DNA from: a virus
IMG/VR virus record: IMGVR_UViG_3300027742_000001
Span: 1 to 64,000 of that record
DNA: 64,000 nt
Direction: 5' to 3' (one strand)
Shown: positions 2,878-61,639 of the stretch, in pieces
Position numbering within the stretch: the stretch's first letter is position 1
Layout: each line of letters opens with the position of its first letter
Program-made: the position numbers and the translations under genes
The notes under the pieces: generated by a model
What the model saw: only the letters and a program-made list of their open reading frames with translations
Told to the model about the DNA's origin: nothing
Database searches by the model: none

Positions 2878-2910
2878 ACTTTTATCAAAACAAAATTAAG
2901 AGGAGAAACT

Positions 2911-4013
2911 ATGGAAACATACAAAAAAGTAAGAAAAACTTTAATAGACTTAGATAGATTTATTTTAAGAAATAATAATTCAAAGAATTGGTTTATGGAT
3001 GCTAATGCTTTATATGAATTTTATGAAGAACCTAAACATAATGGTTATGGTTGGTATAGAAATATAGAATATAAAAATAAGAGAAGATAAAGGAGAAACA
3101 ATGGAAGAATATTATGAAGTAGAAGTTCCTTATAGTGGTTATGTAAGAGGAGATATTATTTATAAAGTTAAAGCTACATCTAAACTTGAAGCAGTAATCT
3201 TAGTAAAGGAACACAAAGGAGAAGAGGTTACAAGAAATATTATTAGAGATGATACTTCTGAGGAGCTAGACTATGCAGAATGTTATGGAAAGTTTTTAGA
3301 TAATAATACTAAACTAAAAGAAGTAATAGAATTTCTTAAGGACTTAAAAACTAAAGGGTATCTTGATATGGATATGTACTTAGAAGATTTGCCTAAAGCA
3401 ATTAAAATATTAGAAGAATTAAAGGAGAAATAATGAAATTAACTATTAAAGAACACGCATATAAAAATGCTAAAAAGAGATGTGGATTAAATAAAAAGTC
3501 TTTTGATAAATTAGTACAAAACGCTATTAAAGGAGATATTAAATTACATAAAACTAAAAATCATTTAAACAAATGGATATGCTCTCAAACATTAAATCAT
3601 AAAAATATTATGAGCGTTTTAGTTTATGATAAATATTTATTACTTTATACTAATGATGTAGTAATTTCTGTTTATCAAATACCTCAAAGGTTATTACCTA
3701 TATCAAAATTTATTATTAAGGAGAAACAATGGACAACATAGACTACACACCTACAAGAAGTAATAGTTATGGAAGAGTACCTCCATTAGAAATTACTCTA
3801 GATACTTATCCTGAAGGATATATCAACAACAAAGCTATTGAGTACTTAATCTCTGAGTTTACTTTTTTAACAAAAAATATACTAAGTTATGAAGAAGCTT
3901 GTTCTTATTGGATACATAATTGTAATAATCAAGGAATAAAGTGTACTAAACAAGAAGTACAAGAAGCATATGATATTTGTTATGGTTATGGATGTGAGTT
4001 TGAGTGGAACTAA
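2911..4013 (+). CDS. Cluster of small hypothetical ORFs: 2911..3090 (not in track), 3101..3433, 3433..3741, 3729..4013
   Basis: Each has an AGGAG RBS and abuts or overlaps its neighbour. Confidence 0.7.
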
Positions 4014-20851: not shown

Positions 20852-22003
20852 ATGAGAGAGCAAAAAGTTATAGATGAAGTTATAGAGATGAATAGTTTCT
20901 ACGATTTATCTGAATATGATTTTACATTAGGTTATGATGAAAAGTCTAAAGTTATATGTCCTAAACATGGAATCCTAAGTAGAAGATTTAGAGATTTAAA
21001 GAGAGGTCTTACTTGCGTAGAATGTAATAAAGAAAGATATGTAAATGTTCAAAGAGAAAGTACCGAAGGTTTCATAAGTAAAATTAATAAAAAATTTATT
21101 AATCATACTATTGATTGGGAAGGATTTGAATATCCAAAAATGCAACATAATAAAATAACTTTAAAATGTAAAAAGCATGGTGCATTTGAAACTACCCCAA
21201 ACAGAGCTTTAAATGTTGCTCTTTCTCCTTGTGTTCAATGTTCATGTGAAATGAGAGGAGTTAGTAATGTTGGAGACAAGAAATCTTTTTTAAAGAAAGC
21301 TAAGGAAAAGTATGGAGATAAGTATTCCTATGATAGATTAGTTTTCAAAAGGTTAAAAGATGATGTAGAGATTTATTGTAATATACATAAAGAGTATTTT
21401 ATGATAATGGCTAATAACTTTATATATTCAGCTAAGATTGGTTGTCCTAAATGTATCCAAGACAAGATTAAGGAAACACAAAGAGTAACTCAAAAGGAGT
21501 TTATTAGGAGGTGTAAAGAGACTCATGGTAATAAATTTGATTTAGGTAATGCTATATATGATGGAGGAACTAGAAAAGTAGAAGTTAAGTGTAATATATG
21601 TAATAATATTTTTTATCCAATAGCTGATAATTTCTCTAAAGGGTCAGGATGCCCCTATTGTGCGAATATATCTAAATTTAATAAATGGAAAGATGAACCT
21701 ACAAGATTATACGTATTAAGATTATACAACGGATTATATAAAATTGGAGTTACTATAAATACAGTAATCAAAAGATACCATAAAGATTTAGAGAGAGATA
21801 AGTATGAAATAATTTATGAGGAATTTTTCAAAGAAGGGAGAGAGCCTTTCAGTATTGAACAAAAAATTAGACACTTGATGTGGGAATATCATTATGAAGG
21901 GGAGAGTCCTTTTAGAGTTACAGGTACTAATGAAGTTTTCACAGTAAACCCAATAAAATATATTGAATTAGCAAAACAACAGATTAAAGGAGGCAAAAAC
22001 TAA
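20852..22003 (+). mobile_element. Free-standing homing endonuclease-like gene (Zn-ribbon repeats + GIY-YIG-like C-terminus)
   Basis: Repeated CxxH/CxxC units (CPKHG, CKKHG, CNIH, GCPYC); LYVL...YKIGVT...R...E...GTNEVF. Confidence 0.75.
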
Positions 22004-50983: not shown

Positions 50984-53900
50984 TTAATATAAACTTCTTA
51001 TTCTTGAATCTTCGTTTTTAGCTCTTAACATAATATTAATTACTTTTTCGTATTCATCATTTTCATTATTCTTAGTAAGCTCTTCAATCATATCTGCTTC
51101 AATAGGTGTTCCCGTACTATTTTCAATATTAATTGTTGTAGGGGTATTTACAATAGTTGCTCCTGTAACACCCATTTGAGGAACTGTTCCATTTTTATTA
51201 ATATAATCAAGCATTGGTCTTGTATCAGAATTAACGGAGTCTTTTTTAGTGAAATATTCTCCTCCCATTGCAAATACATGGGAGCCACTAGCAGAGCCTA
51301 AATATAAATCATCCCTAACACCTGAACCTCCACTAAGTATTCCTCCATTAGCAAATTTCTTAGTAGATAAAAATCCTCCATTTGCTTTAGCAGTTATTGG
51401 TAATTCTCCCCCCTCACTAAATCCAAATAAACTTCCTATTCCTGAAACAGCTTGTTTAACAATTAATGTTCTAATAAGTTCTTGGTAAATAGATTTAATA
51501 ACACCTTTTGCTAGGGTTTCTAAATCCCCGAACCCCTCAGAAGTAACATCAAAGAAATCCATCATACCATTCTCTAATGATTGAAGTCCTACATTACCTA
51601 CTTGTTCAAGGGCTTCATTTAAGGTAGGAACTTCTTTAGCATAATCTGTAAAGGCTTTATTTAATCCTTGATATGCTTTCTCTTGTGCTATAATATTTTC
51701 TAAAGCTTTTGTTTGATTTTGTTGTTCTTCTTCTGATAACTTTTGAAAGTCTTTTGAAGCTCTTAAATCTCTTAAAGCTTTCTCTGAAGCTAGTTCTTCT
51801 TTCTTCTTACCAATTAATTCATCTACTCTTATTTGTTGAGTCTTTATTTTATTCTCAACTCTACCATAAGCTAAATCAATAGCATTTGCTTCTTTAGTTT
51901 GTGCTTTTTGGTATTCATTTCCTAATTTTAATAATTTAGTTATTGCTAATTGTTTTGCTTCTTCTGAAACTAACTTAGCATAGTTTTCCCCTCTAACATT
52001 TAATTCTAATAAAAGTAAATCTGAGGTTTCTCTATTAAGAGAGTTTATCTTAGCTTGTTCAACAAGTTGTGTTATCATTTTATTTGTTTTAGAATCTTGT
52101 TGTTTAAGTTGTTTTTCTGTTTCTGAGGTTTGAGCTTTTTGTTTGGTTTCTATCTTCTCTTGTGATTTTAAGATAGAATTTTGAGCTTCATTTATTCTAG
52201 TTAATTGTTCAAAGGCTTTTGTATATGCGTTAACTTGTAAATCAATATTTAAAACCTCTTGTTTTGATTTACCTTCTTTACTTTGTTGTAACTTATAAAT
52301 TTCTTCTTGAATTCTAATAGCCTCAGAAGATACATCCCCAAAGGTAGTAACTCCTGATAAATCTAATTTAATACCACTTGCTTCTAAGTCACTTTGAATT
52401 TTAGTTACAAATGTAGGTATCTCTTTTTGTATTCTATTAAGTCTATCTAAGTTTAAACCTTTTAGAATATCTAAGTCTTTACCTTTTGCTATATCAACAC
52501 TTTTGTTTATTTTAGTTATAGAAGCATTTACATTGTCTAAATCTGCTGAACTAAAAAACTTTAAAGTATTTTTAAAAGGGATAGTTTCCAAATCCCCTAA
52601 ACTACCTTTTAAAGATTTAATATTGTTTTCATAAGTTATTATTAGATTATTAATACTTTCCCATTGTTTAGAACCCTCTTTAATAGAATCACTATTTAGT
52701 AACTCTTTGTTCTTTTCAATAAGGGCTGTATAACTTTTTATCTGAGAATCAACTTGATTTTTGTTTAATGAACTTAGAATATTTGATTTATTCTTTGTTA
52801 TATCTTGATTTAAAGTATTAGTTTTTTTAAGTAATTCATTAATTTTTGAAATACTAGCATAATCATTGTCATCTTTAGCTTGAGTCTTTAATGTATATAA
52901 AGTAGTTCTTATTAAGTCTAATCTATTAGTAACTTCTTCAAATTCCTTTGTATCACCTAATCCCTTTTTGAACTTATTAAAAGAAGTTGAGGTTGTATCA
53001 ATAGCATTTGTAAGAGTACTTAATTGAACATCTTTACTAACAGCTACTCCAAAGAATTTAAACTCATCAACAGTATTATTCATAGCTCTTGCTAATTCTG
53101 TTGCTTTATCAATGAAAGGGTCAAAAACACTTTGAGCAATACCTTTAGCATTTTCTCCAAATTTAGCCCATGTCTTTCTATAATCTTCTGTAATATTTTT
53201 AGCTTTATCTAGTTCCTCAGAAGTAACATTTAAACTTTCTCTTAAGTTTACTTGTATCTCACCAGCATTATTTTGAATAGCTTGTAAAACATTCTTTGTA
53301 AGAACTTCTACTCCACTTAATGCTTCATTATAACTTTCTCTATTAAAACTTTTTATTTTCTCTAAGAATTCTAATAAGGCTTTATTACTTTCTTCTCCAC
53401 CTTGAGATATTCTTTTAGCTAAATTTGCTTGATTAACTCCAATAGTTTCAAAATACTTTTGAACAGCCCCACTATTACTACTTAAGGCTATTGTAAGTTT
53501 TCTAATTTGTGTACCTATTGTTGATGCATTAAAGGATGCATTTGATAATGCACTTGCTAAACCATTTACAGCATCAATAGTTAATCCAGTAGCTTTTGCA
53601 GAGGCTAAGGCAAAGTTGGCAAAGGTATTAATATCTTGTGTACCTAATCTAGATTTATTTGCTAAGTATGCTAATTTAGCACCTAATTCATCAACACTTG
53701 ATATAACTTGTCCAAATTGGTCTTTTCCAAATACTTGTACGAAAGAGATAATAGAACTAGCTGATTGCTCAATAGAATCCCCTGTCAATAATGCTAATTT
53801 AATAACTACCTCAGAAGCTTCTGCTACTTGTTCTAATGCTAAACCAGCTCTTGATAGTTCTAATGCAACTTTATTAATATCTCCGAGTTGTTCACCATAA

Positions 53901-54745
53901 GTTTTTCCTAGTTCAGCTAAATTACCTTCTAGTCTTTCGGCACTAGCTGAAGATATATCTAGAATAGTTTCTAATCTTTTTATTCCCGATTCATATTCTA
54001 AGGTATACTCTATACCAGCCCTCATTGATTGAGTAACTCCAGCAATAGTAGCAAATAAAGCAGTATATCCTAAACTTCTTCCTACAATTCCTTTTGCTAA
54101 TCCACTTAAAGGAATATCACTTAATTCAGCTTTTGTATCGGCTACTTGATTTTTTAATTGTTGATACTTGGCTTTTGCTGAGTCTATTGTTTTTAAATCA
54201 GATGATGTTAAGTTAACTATACCTTTTGAGCTTAGTGTTCCAATAATTTCTTGTTGTTTTCTAATCTCAGACATTTGAGAAGAAAGCTTACTTAATCCAC
54301 TACTTGAACCAATAGTTTTGTAATGACCTTGTAATGTTTGAGCTTCTCTATTTAGAGCATTAAATTTATCTTGTATTTTGCTAAGTTCAGTTGATTGTGA
54401 TTGTAATCCCGTAGTAGTTTTTAAATTAAGACTATTTACATCTTTTACATATTGTTTTATTTGAGTATATTGTTTTACACTATTTGCTAGTTGTTCGTTA
54501 TTCTTTATTGTTCCTGTTATATCACCACTTTTATACTTCGATATATCTGAACTAATTTGTTTTAGAATATTACTCTTTCTAATTAAATCTTCATAAACTC
54601 CACTTTCTTTACTTAATGAAGCTAATGTTTTCTCTGTTTCAGTAGTTAGTGAGGTTATGTTCTTTTCTAATTTAGTTAACCCACTTTGAATGTCATTAAC
54701 ATTAAGTTTTATTATGGTTTCTATTACTTGTTCTTCACTTGGCAT
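50984..54745 (-). CDS. Tape measure protein
   Basis: 1253 aa helical protein with TP901-type core (ELSRAG, IGTQIR) and C-terminal FANGG/GEY. Confidence 0.92.
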   Translation of the reverse strand: MPSEEQVIETIIKLNVNDIQSGLTKLEKNITSLTTETEKTLASLSKESGVYEDLIRKSNILKQISSDISKYKSGDITGTIKNNEQLANSVKQYTQIKQYVKDVNSLNLKTTTGLQSQSTELSKIQDKFNALNREAQTLQGHYKTIGSSSGLSKLSSQMSEIRKQQEIIGTLSSKGIVNLTSSDLKTIDSAKAKYQQLKNQVADTKAELSDIPLSGLAKGIVGRSLGYTALFATIAGVTQSMRAGIEYTLEYESGIKRLETILDISSASAERLEGNLAELGKTYGEQLGDINKVALELSRAGLALEQVAEASEVVIKLALLTGDSIEQSASSIISFVQVFGKDQFGQVISSVDELGAKLAYLANKSRLGTQDINTFANFALASAKATGLTIDAVNGLASALSNASFNASTIGTQIRKLTIALSSNSGAVQKYFETIGVNQANLAKRISQGGEESNKALLEFLEKIKSFNRESYNEALSGVEVLTKNVLQAIQNNAGEIQVNLRESLNVTSEELDKAKNITEDYRKTWAKFGENAKGIAQSVFDPFIDKATELARAMNNTVDEFKFFGVAVSKDVQLSTLTNAIDTTSTSFNKFKKGLGDTKEFEEVTNRLDLIRTTLYTLKTQAKDDNDYASISKINELLKKTNTLNQDITKNKSNILSSLNKNQVDSQIKSYTALIEKNKELLNSDSIKEGSKQWESINNLIITYENNIKSLKGSLGDLETIPFKNTLKFFSSADLDNVNASITKINKSVDIAKGKDLDILKGLNLDRLNRIQKEIPTFVTKIQSDLEASGIKLDLSGVTTFGDVSSEAIRIQEEIYKLQQSKEGKSKQEVLNIDLQVNAYTKAFEQLTRINEAQNSILKSQEKIETKQKAQTSETEKQLKQQDSKTNKMITQLVEQAKINSLNRETSDLLLLELNVRGENYAKLVSEEAKQLAITKLLKLGNEYQKAQTKEANAIDLAYGRVENKIKTQQIRVDELIGKKKEELASEKALRDLRASKDFQKLSEEEQQNQTKALENIIAQEKAYQGLNKAFTDYAKEVPTLNEALEQVGNVGLQSLENGMMDFFDVTSEGFGDLETLAKGVIKSIYQELIRTLIVKQAVSGIGSLFGFSEGGELPITAKANGGFLSTKKFANGGILSGGSGVRDDLYLGSASGSHVFAMGGEYFTKKDSVNSDTRPMLDYINKNGTVPQMGVTGATIVNTPTTINIENSTGTPIEADMIEELTKNNENDEYEKVINIMLRAKNEDSRIRSLY

Positions 54746-54981: not shown

Positions 54982-55329
54982 TTATTTATCCATTCTTTCT
55001 CTCTCAGATTTCTTTATTGCACTTTTTACTAATTTAGAAGCCACAATGAAAAAGTTAGATTGGTCTAATATTGTACCTTTATTCGGTAAATAACCCTCTG
55101 AATAATACTCATAAGATTCATAAGCTTCGTTGAGGTATTCCCAATTAATATTACTTAAAGGGCAACCCTCAAATTCATATTCATCAATAGTAAACTTCTG
55201 AGAAGGTAAATGTTTACTTCTTTTTATTGTACAATCTTTCTTTCTACAATCCCTTGCAATTTTATCCCTATCAGTACAACTTGAGCAGTCGAACTCTTTA
55301 AATTTATCATCAAATTGTACTGCTAAGGC
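54982..55329 (-). CDS. Tail assembly chaperone, -1 frameshift extension (gpGT-like); not in track
   Basis: 115-codon open -1 frame (ALAVQFDDKFKEFDCSSC...GCPL...GYLPNKGTILDQ...MDK*) with no start codon of its own, entered at A AAA AAG (55335..55329). Confidence 0.85.
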   Translation of the reverse strand, partial: ALAVQFDDKFKEFDCSSCTDRDKIARDCRKKDCTIKRSKHLPSQKFTIDEYEFEGCPLSNINWEYLNEAYESYEYYSEGYLPNKGTILDQSNFFIVASKLVKSAIKKSERERMDK

Positions 55330-55712
55330 TTTTTTAAACTTTCTATATCTTTACCTTTTAACATTGAAGTTACTCTGATAGAACTTGCTAAATCAGAAAT
55401 CCAATCTAAAGGTAATATATCCATAAATTTATCATCAATATCTTCTTCTTTAATTGTTTTAATTGAGTTATCTATTTCAATGTTTTCTACTCTAACAAGT
55501 TTTGCTTTAGACATATCATAATCAACTATTCCTTGTTCAGAAATTAATTTACCTTCTTCATTTTTAAATAACTGTGAATTATACTTTTCAAATTCCCTAT
55601 TAGATAGTGCTTTATAATAAAACTTAGTAGGTTTTTCTTCATCAATTTCCTCAGTAGGAATCCACTCGAACTCTTTCTCTAAGTCTAGTGTCACTAATTT
55701 TCTCTTTGCCAT
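55323..55712 (-). CDS. Tail assembly chaperone (gpG-like)
   Basis: Between tail tube and tape measure genes; ends in a slippery heptamer. Confidence 0.85.
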   Translation of the reverse strand: MAKRKLVTLDLEKEFEWIPTEEIDEEKPTKFYYKALSNREFEKYNSQLFKNEEGKLISEQGIVDYDMSKAKLVRVENIEIDNSIKTIKEEDIDDKFMDILPLDWISDLASSIRVTSMLKGKDIESLKKP

Positions 55713-55729
55713 ATTTTTCCCTTTCTTTT

Positions 55730-56674
55730 TTAATTTAATTTATCTATGTTAAAAACATCTTTGTTAAATACTTCTGTATTGCCATTTGGTAAAAAACATT
55801 CTTTTCTTTTTACCTTATATTCTTTATAAAGATTTAAGTACCTTAGTTCTTCTTTGTAAGCATCTTCCCCTTTTAAGTATTTAGTAGATAGTAGTAAAAG
55901 AGGCTCATGCTCTCTAAACTCCTTAGCTCTAAATCTTTCTTTAATAGTGTTATCTTTAGTCGTTATTCCTATCTTGTAATAGTATTTCCCTTTATTTGTA
56001 AATCTGATATAATATAACCAAGTTGGTTTATCATAATAAGCTATAAATGTATTATCTGAGCTTCCCCTTTTCTCTTGTTTACATTCCTTACAAGATATAT
56101 GTCCTTTATATAAATGACTGATATGGCAGTCAAATATTGTATTATGCTCTAAACATTTTACACTATGTCTTCTTAATATTCTATCATGTTTTAATACTTC
56201 AAATTTATTAGGAAAAATAGAATCTACTTTATTTTGATAATATTCAAGGTCTTTTATTTGTTTATCTGAAGCATTTTTAGAGGCACACTCTTTACAAGTA
56301 TGCTTACCTTGTAATACTTCATAAGCGATTTGTTCAAACCATTTATTATGAATATTACATTTTAAGGTTACTTTATCATCTATTGTTTTATAGACTACTT
56401 TAGATAAATCTAATTTGTCACCCCATACCTCTTTAACTTTTTCTAAAAATCCTTTAGTAGTATGTTTATGTATCCTACCTTCACATTGAGGACACTTATT
56501 ACTTCTTTTATAGTTACCAAGTGTTCTATAAAACACATGATTACAATTTTTACAAGTAAATTTTATATTACTTTTAGCATTTTTATAATCTTTTTCATCA
56601 AAATAGAACTTACCATTTACAAGTTGAATCAATAACTTCTTAGTTTGTTCTACAGTTCTTTTCTTTTTTATCAT
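55730..56674 (-). mobile_element. Free-standing homing endonuclease-like gene (Zn-ribbon repeats + GIY-YIG-like)
   Basis: CxxC/CxxH repeats; LYYI...YKIGIT...RF...E...GNTEVF; same architecture as 20852..22003. Confidence 0.75.
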
Positions 56675-56677
56675 CCA

Positions 56678-56787
56678 TTAGCCTTTCTTACTAAGTGTCA
56701 GCTTAGTTTATTAATTTAAAGTAAGACCTCCTCTGACACAAAGTAGGCTATACTTTAGGAGGTCTTACTTTAAATTAATCTATTATA
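56678..56787 (-). ncRNA. Structured 5' leader (23-bp stem with two loop-downstream pairings)
   Basis: TATAAT at 56787..56782; perfect inverted repeat 56710-56732 / 56757-56779; GTGTCAG/CTGACAC and TAGCCT/AGGCTA complementarities. Confidence 0.65.
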
Positions 56788-56804
56788 TCTAAAGAGAAAG
56801 AACC

Positions 56805-56822
56805 TAGAAGAATTAACTTCTA
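56805..56822 (-). terminator. Terminator after tail tube gene
   Basis: TAGAAG-ttaatt-CTTCTA then GGTTCTTTCTCTTT. Confidence 0.55.
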
Positions 56823-58016
56823 AGCCTTTTTACTTGCTAAATACATAGCATTTCCACTTGAATCATTATTTGCCATAAATGTTAAATTTTGAGCAACTAC
56901 ACCCTCTGAGTCTGCTCTTTCAACAGAGGTTCTTGAAATATCTGCAAAGTACATAACAGCAGTATCACCATTACCATTTATCATTTCAATAAATAAAGTA
57001 GCACTTGCATTTTGTTTGAATTTAATTAGCTCTTGTAAATTTTCTAAATCTTTAGAGAAAGAGATTTCAACAGACTTAGATGTAACTAATTTTTGATAAA
57101 TACCAGTTGTATTAATACTTTCTCTATCTGCTACTGTGTTATTAATTGCAATAGAAACATCTCTTACTTGTGTAACTGTACTATCAAGACTAAATAAGAT
57201 ATTCTTTACAATAAATACATTATTAGCATCTCCACAAGTTAAGTTAGGTGGAGTAGGTTGCGATTGAGTATTAATAAATGTTTGTGTTCCATTTGCACTT
57301 GAAGAAGTAGTTAATAATTCACCTTGTGATAGGTTAAAAGTTAATGAATCAAAAACAATACCTCCAAAGTCAAGTACGGAGTCTGTATCCCCACCTTCAT
57401 ACTGTCTTACAGCTAAAGGAGCAACATCTTCTCCTAACTTTTGTAATCTATATAAATCATAAGAACCTGTTCCAGTAGTTACTTCAGTAACACTTGTTCC
57501 AGCAGTTACATTAGCCCCTTTTTCGATATAAGTTCCCATAGCATTTTTTATAACTAAATGAGGGTTTAATTTCCCAGCTTCTGTACCAGTTATAGGCAAT
57601 ACTGCAAGTTCAGCATCAATAGTACCACTATTTCCCTCTTGCCCCGATAAATTTTTACAAGCAACAAGGGATGGACTGAGATTATTTCTCTCTAATGACT
57701 CAATAGACATATTTAAACCTGAAGTTGTTTGAATAAGAACTGCATCAGCATCAACCCAAGCAGAACCAATATCAGCCCATCTATTTGTATCACTAAAATC
57801 TTCTGCTGTTAGGTCAACTCCTGTTTCATCTGCTGTACCTAAGAATCTATAAAGACTCCCACCATCACTAACAATAGTAGCAAGTGTACCTTCAGTTCTA
57901 GCTAATAAATCTGCTGAAATCTCTGTTGAAGCATAATCAGCTGTGCTAGCTTTTGCTTGACCAACAGTAGTTTCTTCACCTATTAGAACAACCGTCTGTT
58001 TAATTAATTTTGCCAT
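56820..58016 (-). CDS. Major tail tube protein
   Basis: Position between tail terminator and chaperone genes; VLIGEETTVG N-terminus, SIAINN. Confidence 0.8.
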   Translation of the reverse strand: MAKLIKQTVVLIGEETTVGQAKASTADYASTEISADLLARTEGTLATIVSDGGSLYRFLGTADETGVDLTAEDFSDTNRWADIGSAWVDADAVLIQTTSGLNMSIESLERNNLSPSLVACKNLSGQEGNSGTIDAELAVLPITGTEAGKLNPHLVIKNAMGTYIEKGANVTAGTSVTEVTTGTGSYDLYRLQKLGEDVAPLAVRQYEGGDTDSVLDFGGIVFDSLTFNLSQGELLTTSSSANGTQTFINTQSQPTPPNLTCGDANNVFIVKNILFSLDSTVTQVRDVSIAINNTVADRESINTTGIYQKLVTSKSVEISFSKDLENLQELIKFKQNASATLFIEMINGNGDTAVMYFADISRTSVERADSEGVVAQNLTFMANNDSSGNAMYLASKKA

Positions 58017-60065: not shown

Positions 60066-61550
60066 CTATTTTATGTGTTTAATATATACTTTGTTACCAC
60101 AATCCCAATATCTTAAGTAATCATTATTCAACATATTTTCATATTCAGTTAGATTAGAATCATATACTTCTAGTTTATCTTTTAACTTATGCTTCATAAA
60201 CTTTTGTCTATTAAGTACCTCTAAAGAGCCTTCTTTAAAATAATAATAATTAGGTTTACTTTCATGTGTAAAATAAAAACCTAATGATTCATATAAAGAA
60301 CCATCAAATATGCTCTTATCACAATAACTAACTAAAGTTCCTTTAAAGTTTCTTTCAAAGTATTTTAATAACTTACTCGCTCCTCCAATAACTGAAGTGC
60401 CTAATTTGTTACAAAATCTTATAAGTTCATAATCATGTTTATTACTAAATCTAGATTTTCCAAAAGTCATTATTGATACTAAATCATTATTATAAATTAA
60501 CCCATACTTTAATGTGCTTGAAGAATATCCTTGTAAATGATTATCATTAATAAAATCTTTTGCTTCCTTTGTGCTTAACTCAACTAAAGTACATTTTCTA
60601 GCATATATTTTATTAGTAACAATTCCTAATCTCTTTTTGATTAAATCTTTTATTATGTCTTGTTTATTAATCCATTGGTGTTCAAAGATATGTAATAATT
60701 GAATCCCTTTTTGATTTGCTACGTTTGTCTTGTTTAAGTGATAATCTTTTGTTTTACCTCTTATACCTTCTGAGTGCCAATACAATCCATTATATTCAAA
60801 CCCTATTGCTAAATCTTCAATATAAACATCTATTTCTTTTAAATCTAAAATTCTACTATTTTGAGTTATCTCTTTATCTGTTAAAGATTGAATAAATTCA
60901 TATAGTACTATTTCACCTTTAGATTTAACATTTTGACATCCACAAGAAGTTTTAGAGCCATTTCTTATATAAGTATTTTGCCATTCAAAAACTTCATCAC
61001 AAAAAGGACATTTAAACTTAGAGATATATCTATCAAAATCTTTGTGCTTTTTTATATTAGGTTCAACTACCTCAATATTATTTAAAGTTTGACCTTTTTT
61101 TGGTTTTTGTTTTCTTAATGTACACCCACATGATTTTCTACCTTTTTTACTAACCTCTTTAATAGTAGTAATAAAAGAATCTCCACAGTCTACACATTTA
61201 AACTTAGCTTTTCTATCTTTATGACTTGATTCAGTTTTTTCAATAGGAAATAATTCAAGTATCTCTACATTATATTTACCAATCTTTTGTCCTACTTTAT
61301 ACTTATTGTAAGGTAATTGACACCCACAAGATATTTTAGCATTAGTTCTCCCTCGTATAACGTGGTCTAAACTAGCTTCAAAAGGTTCTTTACAAAAAGG
61401 ACATTCAAAAATAGCTCTCTTTTGACTTCTATTTTTACCTTCAGGAATCCAATAATCAGTAAGCATTTTAACTTTCTGAGTTCCTACGTAATCACCTTTA
61501 TTATATTTTCTATTTCTTAGTTTATTTTGCTTATTTTTTTCTGTATCCAA
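60066..61550 (-). mobile_element. Hef/Vsr-like PD-(D/E)XK endonuclease with Zn-ribbon repeats and a C-terminal Mom-like GNAT domain
   Basis: Three CxxC...SCGC repeats; SKGE...EIDVYI...FEYNGLYWHS; ELIRFC...GGASKLL...VSYCD...GSLYESLGF; RYWDCG. Confidence 0.75.
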
Positions 61551-61636
61551 CTATTAACTCCTTTTTGTTTTACTATAACATAAGGTAGCTTAATAATTAC
61601 TTAATACAAATACTAAGATATTGGGATTGTGGTAAC
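60093..61636. repeat. Perfect 23-bp inverted repeat pair (60093-60115 and 61614-61636)
   Basis: GTTACCACAATCCCAATATCTTA versus TAAGATATTGGGATTGTGGTAAC. Confidence 0.95.
61572..61604 (-). promoter_or_regulatory. Phage promoter, copy 13 (endonuclease gene)
   Basis: TTAAG-N6-TTAAG-N11-TATAGT on the minus strand, followed by AAGGAG and TTG. Confidence 0.7.
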
Positions 61637-61639
61637 TAA

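Follow-up and report, generated by a model that had tools for sequence, protein, structure and literature searches.

Homing endonucleases are frequent passengers of phage genomes, where they mark the borders of genetic exchange. What prevents such nucleases from doing harm within strongly expressed operons is understood mainly for T4, in which a simple hairpin hides the ribosome-binding site (RBS). The locus described here raises the question of what is done by a long, perfectly paired RNA leader that lies between a phage tail tube gene and a free-standing endonuclease gene. The source record is a complete 91.9-kb IMG/VR phage genome with direct terminal repeats and a G+C content of 27%, and the window, meaning the whole stretch of DNA that was analysed, is its first 64 kb. 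All genes around the leader are encoded on the minus strand in the order tube, endonuclease, 129-aa gene, tape measure, with a gap of 145 nt between the tail tube and endonuclease genes:

56820-58016, minus strand: tail tube gene, 398 aa (Pfam PF18906, Phage_tube_2, E 4.6e-9), the host-phage gene upstream of the cassette
56791-56826, minus strand: terminator-like hairpin with a U-rich tail, 3' of the tail tube gene (terminator scan)
55730-56674, minus strand: free-standing endonuclease gene, 314 aa (phrog_681 endonuclease, E 6e-31)
55323-55712, minus strand: backbone gene, 129 aa, in the tail-assembly-chaperone position, the right border of the cassette
50984-54745, minus strand: tape measure gene, following the gene in the chaperone position

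The endonuclease combines N-terminal treble-clef zinc fingers (DUF4379/DUF723) with a weakly matched C-terminal T5orf172 (GIY-YIG-like) domain. DUF4379 was found in all five members of the nuclease family (best E 2.7e-9) and DUF723 in three of the five (best E 3e-9), PF05265 is listed among the precomputed assignments of the window endonuclease, and T5orf172 (PF10544) matched residues 220-310 at E 0.014 and 16.4 bits, under the 20-bit cut-off. The motifs YYKIGIT, RF and GNTEVF are invariant across the nuclease alignment, the protein collection contains two further homologues (P0016, on a 1.2-kb ENA contig, and P0018, on a 45-kb Logan contig that carries the tube homologue P0007 as well), and no solved structural relative of the endonuclease was found. 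The zinc-finger endonuclease with a GIY-YIG link that had been proposed for this gene is thus borne out by the DUF4379 and DUF723 matches and, weakly, by that to T5orf172, a GIY-YIG subfamily; given the weakness of the latter match, the product is best described as a putative zinc-finger/T5orf172-type homing endonuclease.

Relatives of the locus were recovered by an alignment-based scan with the tube protein, which yielded five loci (L003-L007), and tail tube relatives at 87-51% identity are present in a large protein collection. A nuclease homologue occupies the same place in L006 (56% identity) and L007 (43%), so that the nucleases of the three lineages that bear a leader are only 43-56% identical. 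Near and distant searches for close DNA relatives among GenBank phages returned nothing useful; tblastn gave no match for the tube protein and, for the nuclease, only relatives of at most 30% identity in unrelated phages. Single-protein scans of IMG/VR gave no match, and an alignment-based scan found the nuclease neither in IMG/VR nor in 185,579 genomes. Scans for the conserved stem-core pattern gave 75 matches in viral contigs and 23 in genome contigs, all of which were rejected: they proved to be terminators of the usual kind, coding sequence or palindromes that had arisen by chance, and the nuclease accompanied none of them.

Between the tube terminator and the endonuclease start codon, the following elements make up the window leader and its surroundings:

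56782-56787, minus strand: TATAAT, read from the sequence, a -10-like hexamer and candidate promoter of the cassette, 2 nt upstream of the stem
56757-56779, minus strand: 5' arm of the long stem S1, 23 nt, 100% complementary to the 3' arm
56740-56756, minus strand: apical hairpin AAAGTA-TAGCC-TACTTT (sequence and RNA fold)
56750-56745, minus strand: anti-RBS segment L, the loop plus the next U, UAGCCU (sequence and RNA fold)
56733-56739, minus strand: bulge B, 7 nt, GUGUCAG, on the 3' side of the stem (sequence and RNA fold)
56710-56732, minus strand: 3' arm of S1 (inverted-repeat search)
56690-56707, minus strand: small hairpin 2, ACUAAG / CUUAGU (predicted in the folds of all three leaders)
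56701-56695, minus strand: box B', CUGACAC, the exact complement of the bulge, in the loop of hairpin 2 (sequence)
56687-56682, minus strand: Shine-Dalgarno (SD) sequence GAAAGG, overlapping box L'
56684-56679, minus strand: box L', AGGCUA, complement of the apical loop, over the SD and spacer, inside GAAAGGCTAATGGATG
56674, minus strand: endonuclease ATG, preceded by the SD and spacer GAAAGGCTAATGG

The perfect 23-bp stem, the inner hairpin with its loop and bulge, and the two downstream complements reported in the preliminary description were all recovered at these positions; hairpin 2, which is small and conserved and carries the downstream box in its loop, was absent from that description. 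S1 is the sole perfect arm pair among the 21 short-range inverted repeats of the window. It is capped by a 24-nt branched top and followed on its 3' side by AAACUAAG. The leader RNA folds at -41.7 kcal/mol (z = -5.4), and none of 200 shuffles was as stable. Within the nested fold the apical loop is unpaired with P 0.78, and all four partner segments are, in most cases, predicted to be mostly unpaired, box B' having an intermediate unpaired probability of 0.60 in L006 and, as the exception, ∼0.22 in L007. The SD region is ∼89% unpaired in the nested folds of all three leaders. Predicted duplex energies range from -8.2 to -10.4 kcal/mol for B-B' and from -7.3 to -8.2 kcal/mol for L-L'. A perfect AGGAGG at 56727-56732 (minus strand) lies in the 3' arm, fully paired with CCUCCU of the 5' arm; it is followed by no start codon, is not conserved in L006 or L007, and is probably incidental. 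An open reading frame within the leader was rejected, the out-of-frame AUG at 56678 not being conserved, as was a continuous alternative helix from the top of the hairpin to the RBS region, the middle part of which, judged by eye, is not conserved in L007.

Could two such complementarities arise by chance? The preliminary description had considered two separate exact pairings unlikely, and this holds for only one of them when each is taken singly. In 20,000 dinucleotide shuffles for the three leaders, an exact 7-nt complement of the bulge appeared within the 38-43 nt downstream in 0.15%, 0.18% and 0% of cases, and box B' is the only bulge complement of at least 6 nt within ∼1.5 kb. The match between loop and RBS, however, is not significant alone: 9-14% of shuffles show one, and 18 of 125 genes of this 27% GC genome have an upstream match of at least 6 nt between a loop and the RBS. 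Once the CCU/AGG anchor is given, three more bases match in the window and four more in L007; by rough estimate each of these extensions has a chance of ∼0.02, and the joint chance for the two is ∼3e-4 (likewise rough, from base composition). Because the match is insignificant in a single sequence, support for the loop-RBS pairing comes from covariation between lineages.

The covariation set comprised three leaders (window, L006 and L007), two of which, L006 and L007, are closely related. These two share a fold in which a 21-bp stem bears a 5-bp apical hairpin with a loop of 7 nt and, on its 3' side, a bulge of 7 nt, and is followed by a small second hairpin and then the RBS. The paired segments of the three are as follows:

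Window: upper stem GACCUCCU / AGGAGGUC; bulge and box GUGUCAG / CUGACAC; loop and RBS UAGCCU / AGGCUA
L007: upper stem GGUUACU / AGUAACC; bulge and box GUGUCAG / CUGACAC; loop and RBS UAUUCCU / AGGAAUA
L006: upper stem GGCUAUU / AGUAGCC (one U.G); bulge and box AUGCCAA / UUGGCAU; loop and RBS UAUUCCU / AGGGAUA (one G.U)

A covariance model built from L006 and L007 only retrieved the window element at 78.9 bits (E 1e-14), as a single copy in the 92-kb genome. In the model-guided alignment, in which both long-range helices were entered as pseudoknots, 40 pairs gave 120 cells, of which 96.7% were paired, and 18 of the 40 pairs had changed on both sides. The values for pairing and for double changes were reached by none of 500 shuffles, and sliding the partner by 1-3 columns as a control left 33-49% paired. 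All 21 aligned pairs of S1 are paired in the three sequences (100%), 11 of them with changes on both sides. The bulge helix is paired at seven of seven positions in each of the three leaders, with three of the seven pairs changed on both sides. The loop helix is 81% paired in the alignment, a figure lowered solely by L006, which is shifted there by one column; aligned by hand, L006 pairs at seven of seven positions with one G.U. L006 and L007 are 91% identical, and nearly every difference between them in the hairpin or box B' is compensated. Spacing is also kept, at 38-42 nt from bulge to box and ∼67-70 nt from loop to RBS, and the sequence of the lower stem (UAAAGUAAG/CUUACUUUA), with its U-rich core (CUUACUUUA) on the 3' side, is conserved in all three leaders. 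Both long-range pairings claimed in the preliminary description are therefore maintained by compensatory changes in L006 and L007. The two G.U pairs of L006, one in the stem and one in the loop-RBS helix, would become A/C mismatches on the other strand or in a cruciform; the conserved structure is thus an RNA of the coding strand and no DNA palindrome, and a DNA cruciform or operator was rejected on this ground.

Comparison of the loci also revealed what the leader travels with. The nuclease gene is polymorphic for presence and absence at one tube-to-chaperone junction, being present in L006 and L007 and absent from L005 and L003. In the latter two, the tube terminator is followed by a short unstructured spacer and then the chaperone gene; the whole leader element is absent from both, and RNA and nuclease are likewise missing from the record of the related phage to which L003 belongs. 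L005, with 75% tube identity, has flanks near-identical to those of L006, in which ∼65 nt of L005 are replaced by a block consisting of TATAATA, the hairpin, the leader and the nuclease gene. Since the nuclease-free relatives also lack the leader, it belongs to a mobile cassette and not to the phage backbone. A link between the RNA and the nuclease, which had been suspected from the window, is accordingly substantiated, the two being present or absent together as one cassette.

Further traces of exchange were noted at these loci. L007 is a mosaic: its tube protein is ∼50% identical to that of the window (L005 and L006, ∼75%), and over the second (3') half of the nuclease gene and the chaperone region that follows (∼2900-3352) it is identical to L006 and L005, a pattern consistent with nuclease genes lying at recombination boundaries. 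In L006, a 19-nt segment preceding the nuclease ATG (AAAAGAAAGGGATATTATG) recurs almost exactly before the chaperone ATG (AAAACAAAGGGATATTATG), so that a direct RBS repeat (1053-1073 and ∼2004-2024) flanks the nuclease ORF; it may be a record of ORF insertion or a means of precise loss, and it accounts for the G.U pair in the loop-RBS helix of L006. The terminator-like hairpin overlapping the tube gene stop (GCYUAGAAG...CUUCUWGG plus a U-rich tail; window 56826-56791) is conserved in L003-L007, across tube lineages ∼50% identical to that of the window. Because it is present in relatives with and without the endonuclease gene, at all five loci, it is part of the phage backbone and not of the cassette, and its probable role is to set the amount of tube protein relative to the tail proteins encoded downstream.

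We propose that the RNA of 56779-56672 (minus strand) serves as the structured 5' leader of a mobile homing-endonuclease cassette and that it probably covers the RBS and represses translation in cis. The cassette sits between the terminator of the tail tube gene and the next tail gene. Its RNA is predicted to fold into a hairpin of 21-23 bp that would expose the apical loop and the 7-nt bulge as single strands. The bulge could then pair with the box in the loop of the small second hairpin, ∼40 nt downstream, and the apical loop with the 3' half of the SD and the spacer before the AUG, its target being the GG of the SD plus a gene-specific spacer. Together the two pairings would add 13-14 base pairs and cover the ribosome-binding site. 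Transcripts carrying the leader, including read-through from the heavily transcribed tail tube gene, would consequently yield little nuclease. Such a lock would matter at this site, since the gene immediately upstream of the cassette is structural and heavily expressed and the tail genes beyond the cassette presumably rely on read-through.

The sequences themselves show the fold, the strand on which it forms, two long-range complementarities that covary, and a leader linked to the nuclease gene; from them we infer pairing in vivo, repression of translation and action in cis. Judged from these sequence features, the leader most likely keeps synthesis of the nuclease low. The simplest reading would be that it locks translation initiation, serving by analogy the same purpose as the RBS hairpins of T-even endonuclease genes (PMC2988022). 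The two-state "switch" of the preliminary description found no backing, as nothing indicates a switch rather than a constitutive lock.

Several points weigh against a lock of this kind. A perfect stem of at least 21 bp is not needed merely to display a loop, the covariation comes from three sequences of which two are close, and the loop-RBS match is insignificant singly. By geometric estimate, a static double pseudoknot in cis would be strained in the window, where only 8 nt separate the base of the stem from box B', a short distance for a 23-bp stem; opening a few terminal A-U pairs or melting hairpin 2 would relieve the strain. The same estimate suggests that the structure would be comfortable in L006 and L007, with 13-14 nt. 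Finally, the genome encodes a distant paralogue of the nuclease (383 aa; 20852-22003, plus strand; profile E 6.7e-17) that lacks a leader altogether. Its gene starts 1 nt past the stop of a 962-aa ORF, with the SD inside the upstream gene. Because this distant paralogue is leaderless, the RNA lock would be confined to the cassette at the tail locus.

A second, unrelated endonuclease gene follows the capsid gene (∼60066-61550, minus strand). It is bracketed by a 26-nt inverted repeat, 96% complementary, whose arms lie 1.5 kb apart (60090-60115 and 61614-61639), one in the 5' leader and the other in the 3' coding end. This repeat may represent another way of folding a nuclease mRNA shut.

The length of the stem is the starting point for a different reading, in which the hairpin would be freed as a small RNA, by RNase III cutting or partial termination, and act in trans on nuclease mRNAs by way of the same loop and bulge boxes, much as the C4 RNA does in P1/P7; we regard this as possible, if unlikely. 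Long perfect RNA stems are classic RNase III substrates, and although its letters have changed, the stem remains perfect over at least two helical turns in each of the three leaders, which also share the U-rich core CUUACUUUA in the 3' arm. Action in trans would also remove the problem of the short linker in the window. L006 and L007 differ at three of seven bulge positions, with matching changes in the box, as compared to 2 of 26 stem pairs, which resembles the change of RNA "address" for which P1/P7 heteroimmunity is the precedent. This contrast is suggestive at most, however, and the stem is not called by the terminator scan, strong termination would be expected to starve the downstream tail genes, the Rfam C4 model has no match at E <= 10, and no boxes resembling a1/b1 lie upstream. 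As an intrinsic terminator, for which a short G+C-rich stem with a loop of 3-8 nt and a following U run would be expected, the long stem was in fact rejected, the scan having called only the hairpin at 56826-56801. A narrower version, in which the RNA would be a cassette-specific antisense RNA with the bulge and loop as its address, acting in trans during mixed infection as a private, evolvable repressor, is unlikely. If true, it would amount to an immunity-like layer among competing selfish elements, like that of P1/P7 C4 but acting on a homing endonuclease.

Transcription start sites could instead decide between locked and translated messages, as for T4 I-TevI, with read-through transcripts locked and a promoter in or after the hairpin producing transcripts free of the lock. 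This mechanism is established for T-even endonuclease genes (PMC2988022), TATAAT lies within the 3' arm of L006 and L007 (CUUUAUAAUUU), and the TATAAT upstream of the window stem would start transcription ∼4-6 nt inside the 5' arm. The latter start, however, would leave 17-19 bp together with the loop and bulge, and in the window the corresponding place in the 3' arm reads TAAATT instead of TATAAT. The promoter of the preliminary description fares no better: the hexamer itself is present at 56787-56782, and TATAATA also precedes the stem in L006 and L007, yet it has no -35 element, was not called by the promoter scan, and is one of 335 occurrences in the 92-kb genome, such hexamers being very frequent at 27% GC. 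We therefore consider promoter choice quite improbable. That the hairpin chiefly serves as an mRNA stabiliser or insulator, a binding site for a protein such as the nuclease, or a DNA palindrome, with the extra complementarities incidental, is more improbable still: the lower stem UAAAGUAAG/CUUACUUUA is indeed kept at the sequence level in all three leaders and I-TevI represses its own promoter via an operator resembling its homing site (PMC2988022), but the bulge-box helix covaries at three of seven pairs, far beyond chance, the G.U pairs speak against a DNA palindrome, and the target of the loop is exactly the SD and spacer in all three leaders.

How does the proposed cis lock compare with known systems? 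The literature searched contained no comparable leader; it yielded the T4 hairpin paradigm and work on T5orf172 enzymes. T5orf172 homing endonucleases with arrays of CapR/DUF723/DUF4379 zinc fingers have been described in ICP1-like phages (bioRxiv 10.1101/2023.03.23.533998), in a text from which the words "promoter" and "hairpin" are absent. The window endonuclease resembles these enzymes in its zinc-finger repeats and, by a weak match (E 0.014), in its putative C-terminal T5orf172 domain, and nucleases of its type likewise lie at a boundary of genetic exchange, L007 switching lineage within the cassette.

Regulatory pseudoknots at the RBS, as in the E. coli alpha operon (S4), rpsO (S15) and T4 gene 32, are operators for a repressor protein. 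They share with the leader a long-range pairing of the RBS region that makes a pseudoknot at the initiation site, but nothing about the leader points to a protein partner, the nuclease included, and it resembles them in neither sequence nor fold.

The C4 antisense RNA of P1/P7 (RF01695) is cut from a transcript that carries its own targets, the a2/b2 boxes, and both C4 and the P4 CI RNA are folded RNAs that lie upstream of their targets on the same strand. The likeness to the leader is considerable: a couple of short segments left exposed by the fold base-pair with two boxes farther downstream, one of which lies over the RBS, and specificity is set by letters that covary; the same arrangement on one strand is found in all three covarying leaders. 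Unlike C4, however, the window leader has no tRNA-like end for RNase P, and the downstream gene is a homing endonuclease rather than an immunity or antirepressor operon. Upstream boxes of the a1/b1 type were sought and none was found. The preliminary description had left room for membership in a known RNA family, and Rfam offers none for the window, L006 or L007: a cmscan with 4227 families gave no C4, c4-a1b1, isrK or int-alpA match at E <= 10 for 55500-58000 or at E <= 5 for L006 and L007, only generic long-hairpin matches far under their gathering scores were returned, and Rfam families including C4, ribozymes and riboswitches were rejected.

The closest functional parallel would be the T-even homing endonuclease genes, which are held down by RNA structures that sequester the RBS, as in I-TevI, I-TevII, I-TevIII, segB and Aeh1 mobE (PMC2988022). 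As in these cases, an RNA structure would lie over the RBS of a selfish nuclease gene in a long polycistronic phage transcript, with low nuclease synthesis as its likely purpose. In the T-even cases the RBS is inside one simple local hairpin, which a late promoter bypasses (PMC2988022), whereas here the SD and AUG lie outside any stable local hairpin in all three leaders, the RBS would be reached by the apical loop of a distant hairpin of 21-23 bp, a second contact joins the bulge to a loop, and no bypass promoter is evident. The layout is nearest to that of seg43(25) in Aeromonas phage 25, where a very stable hairpin stands just upstream of an unsequestered RBS (PMC2988022), although no tertiary pairing has been reported there. 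The leader would therefore work like the T-even locks and is laid out like C4, and it belongs to neither group, because its RBS is not in a local hairpin and the C4 model does not match it. If confirmed, it would be a compact RNA lock on translation, absent from Rfam, that can be re-addressed by a few letter changes. It would reach the same end as the T4 hairpins by a different design, in which a long hairpin carries two coded segments that would grip the initiation region twice and the whole device moves with the nuclease gene.
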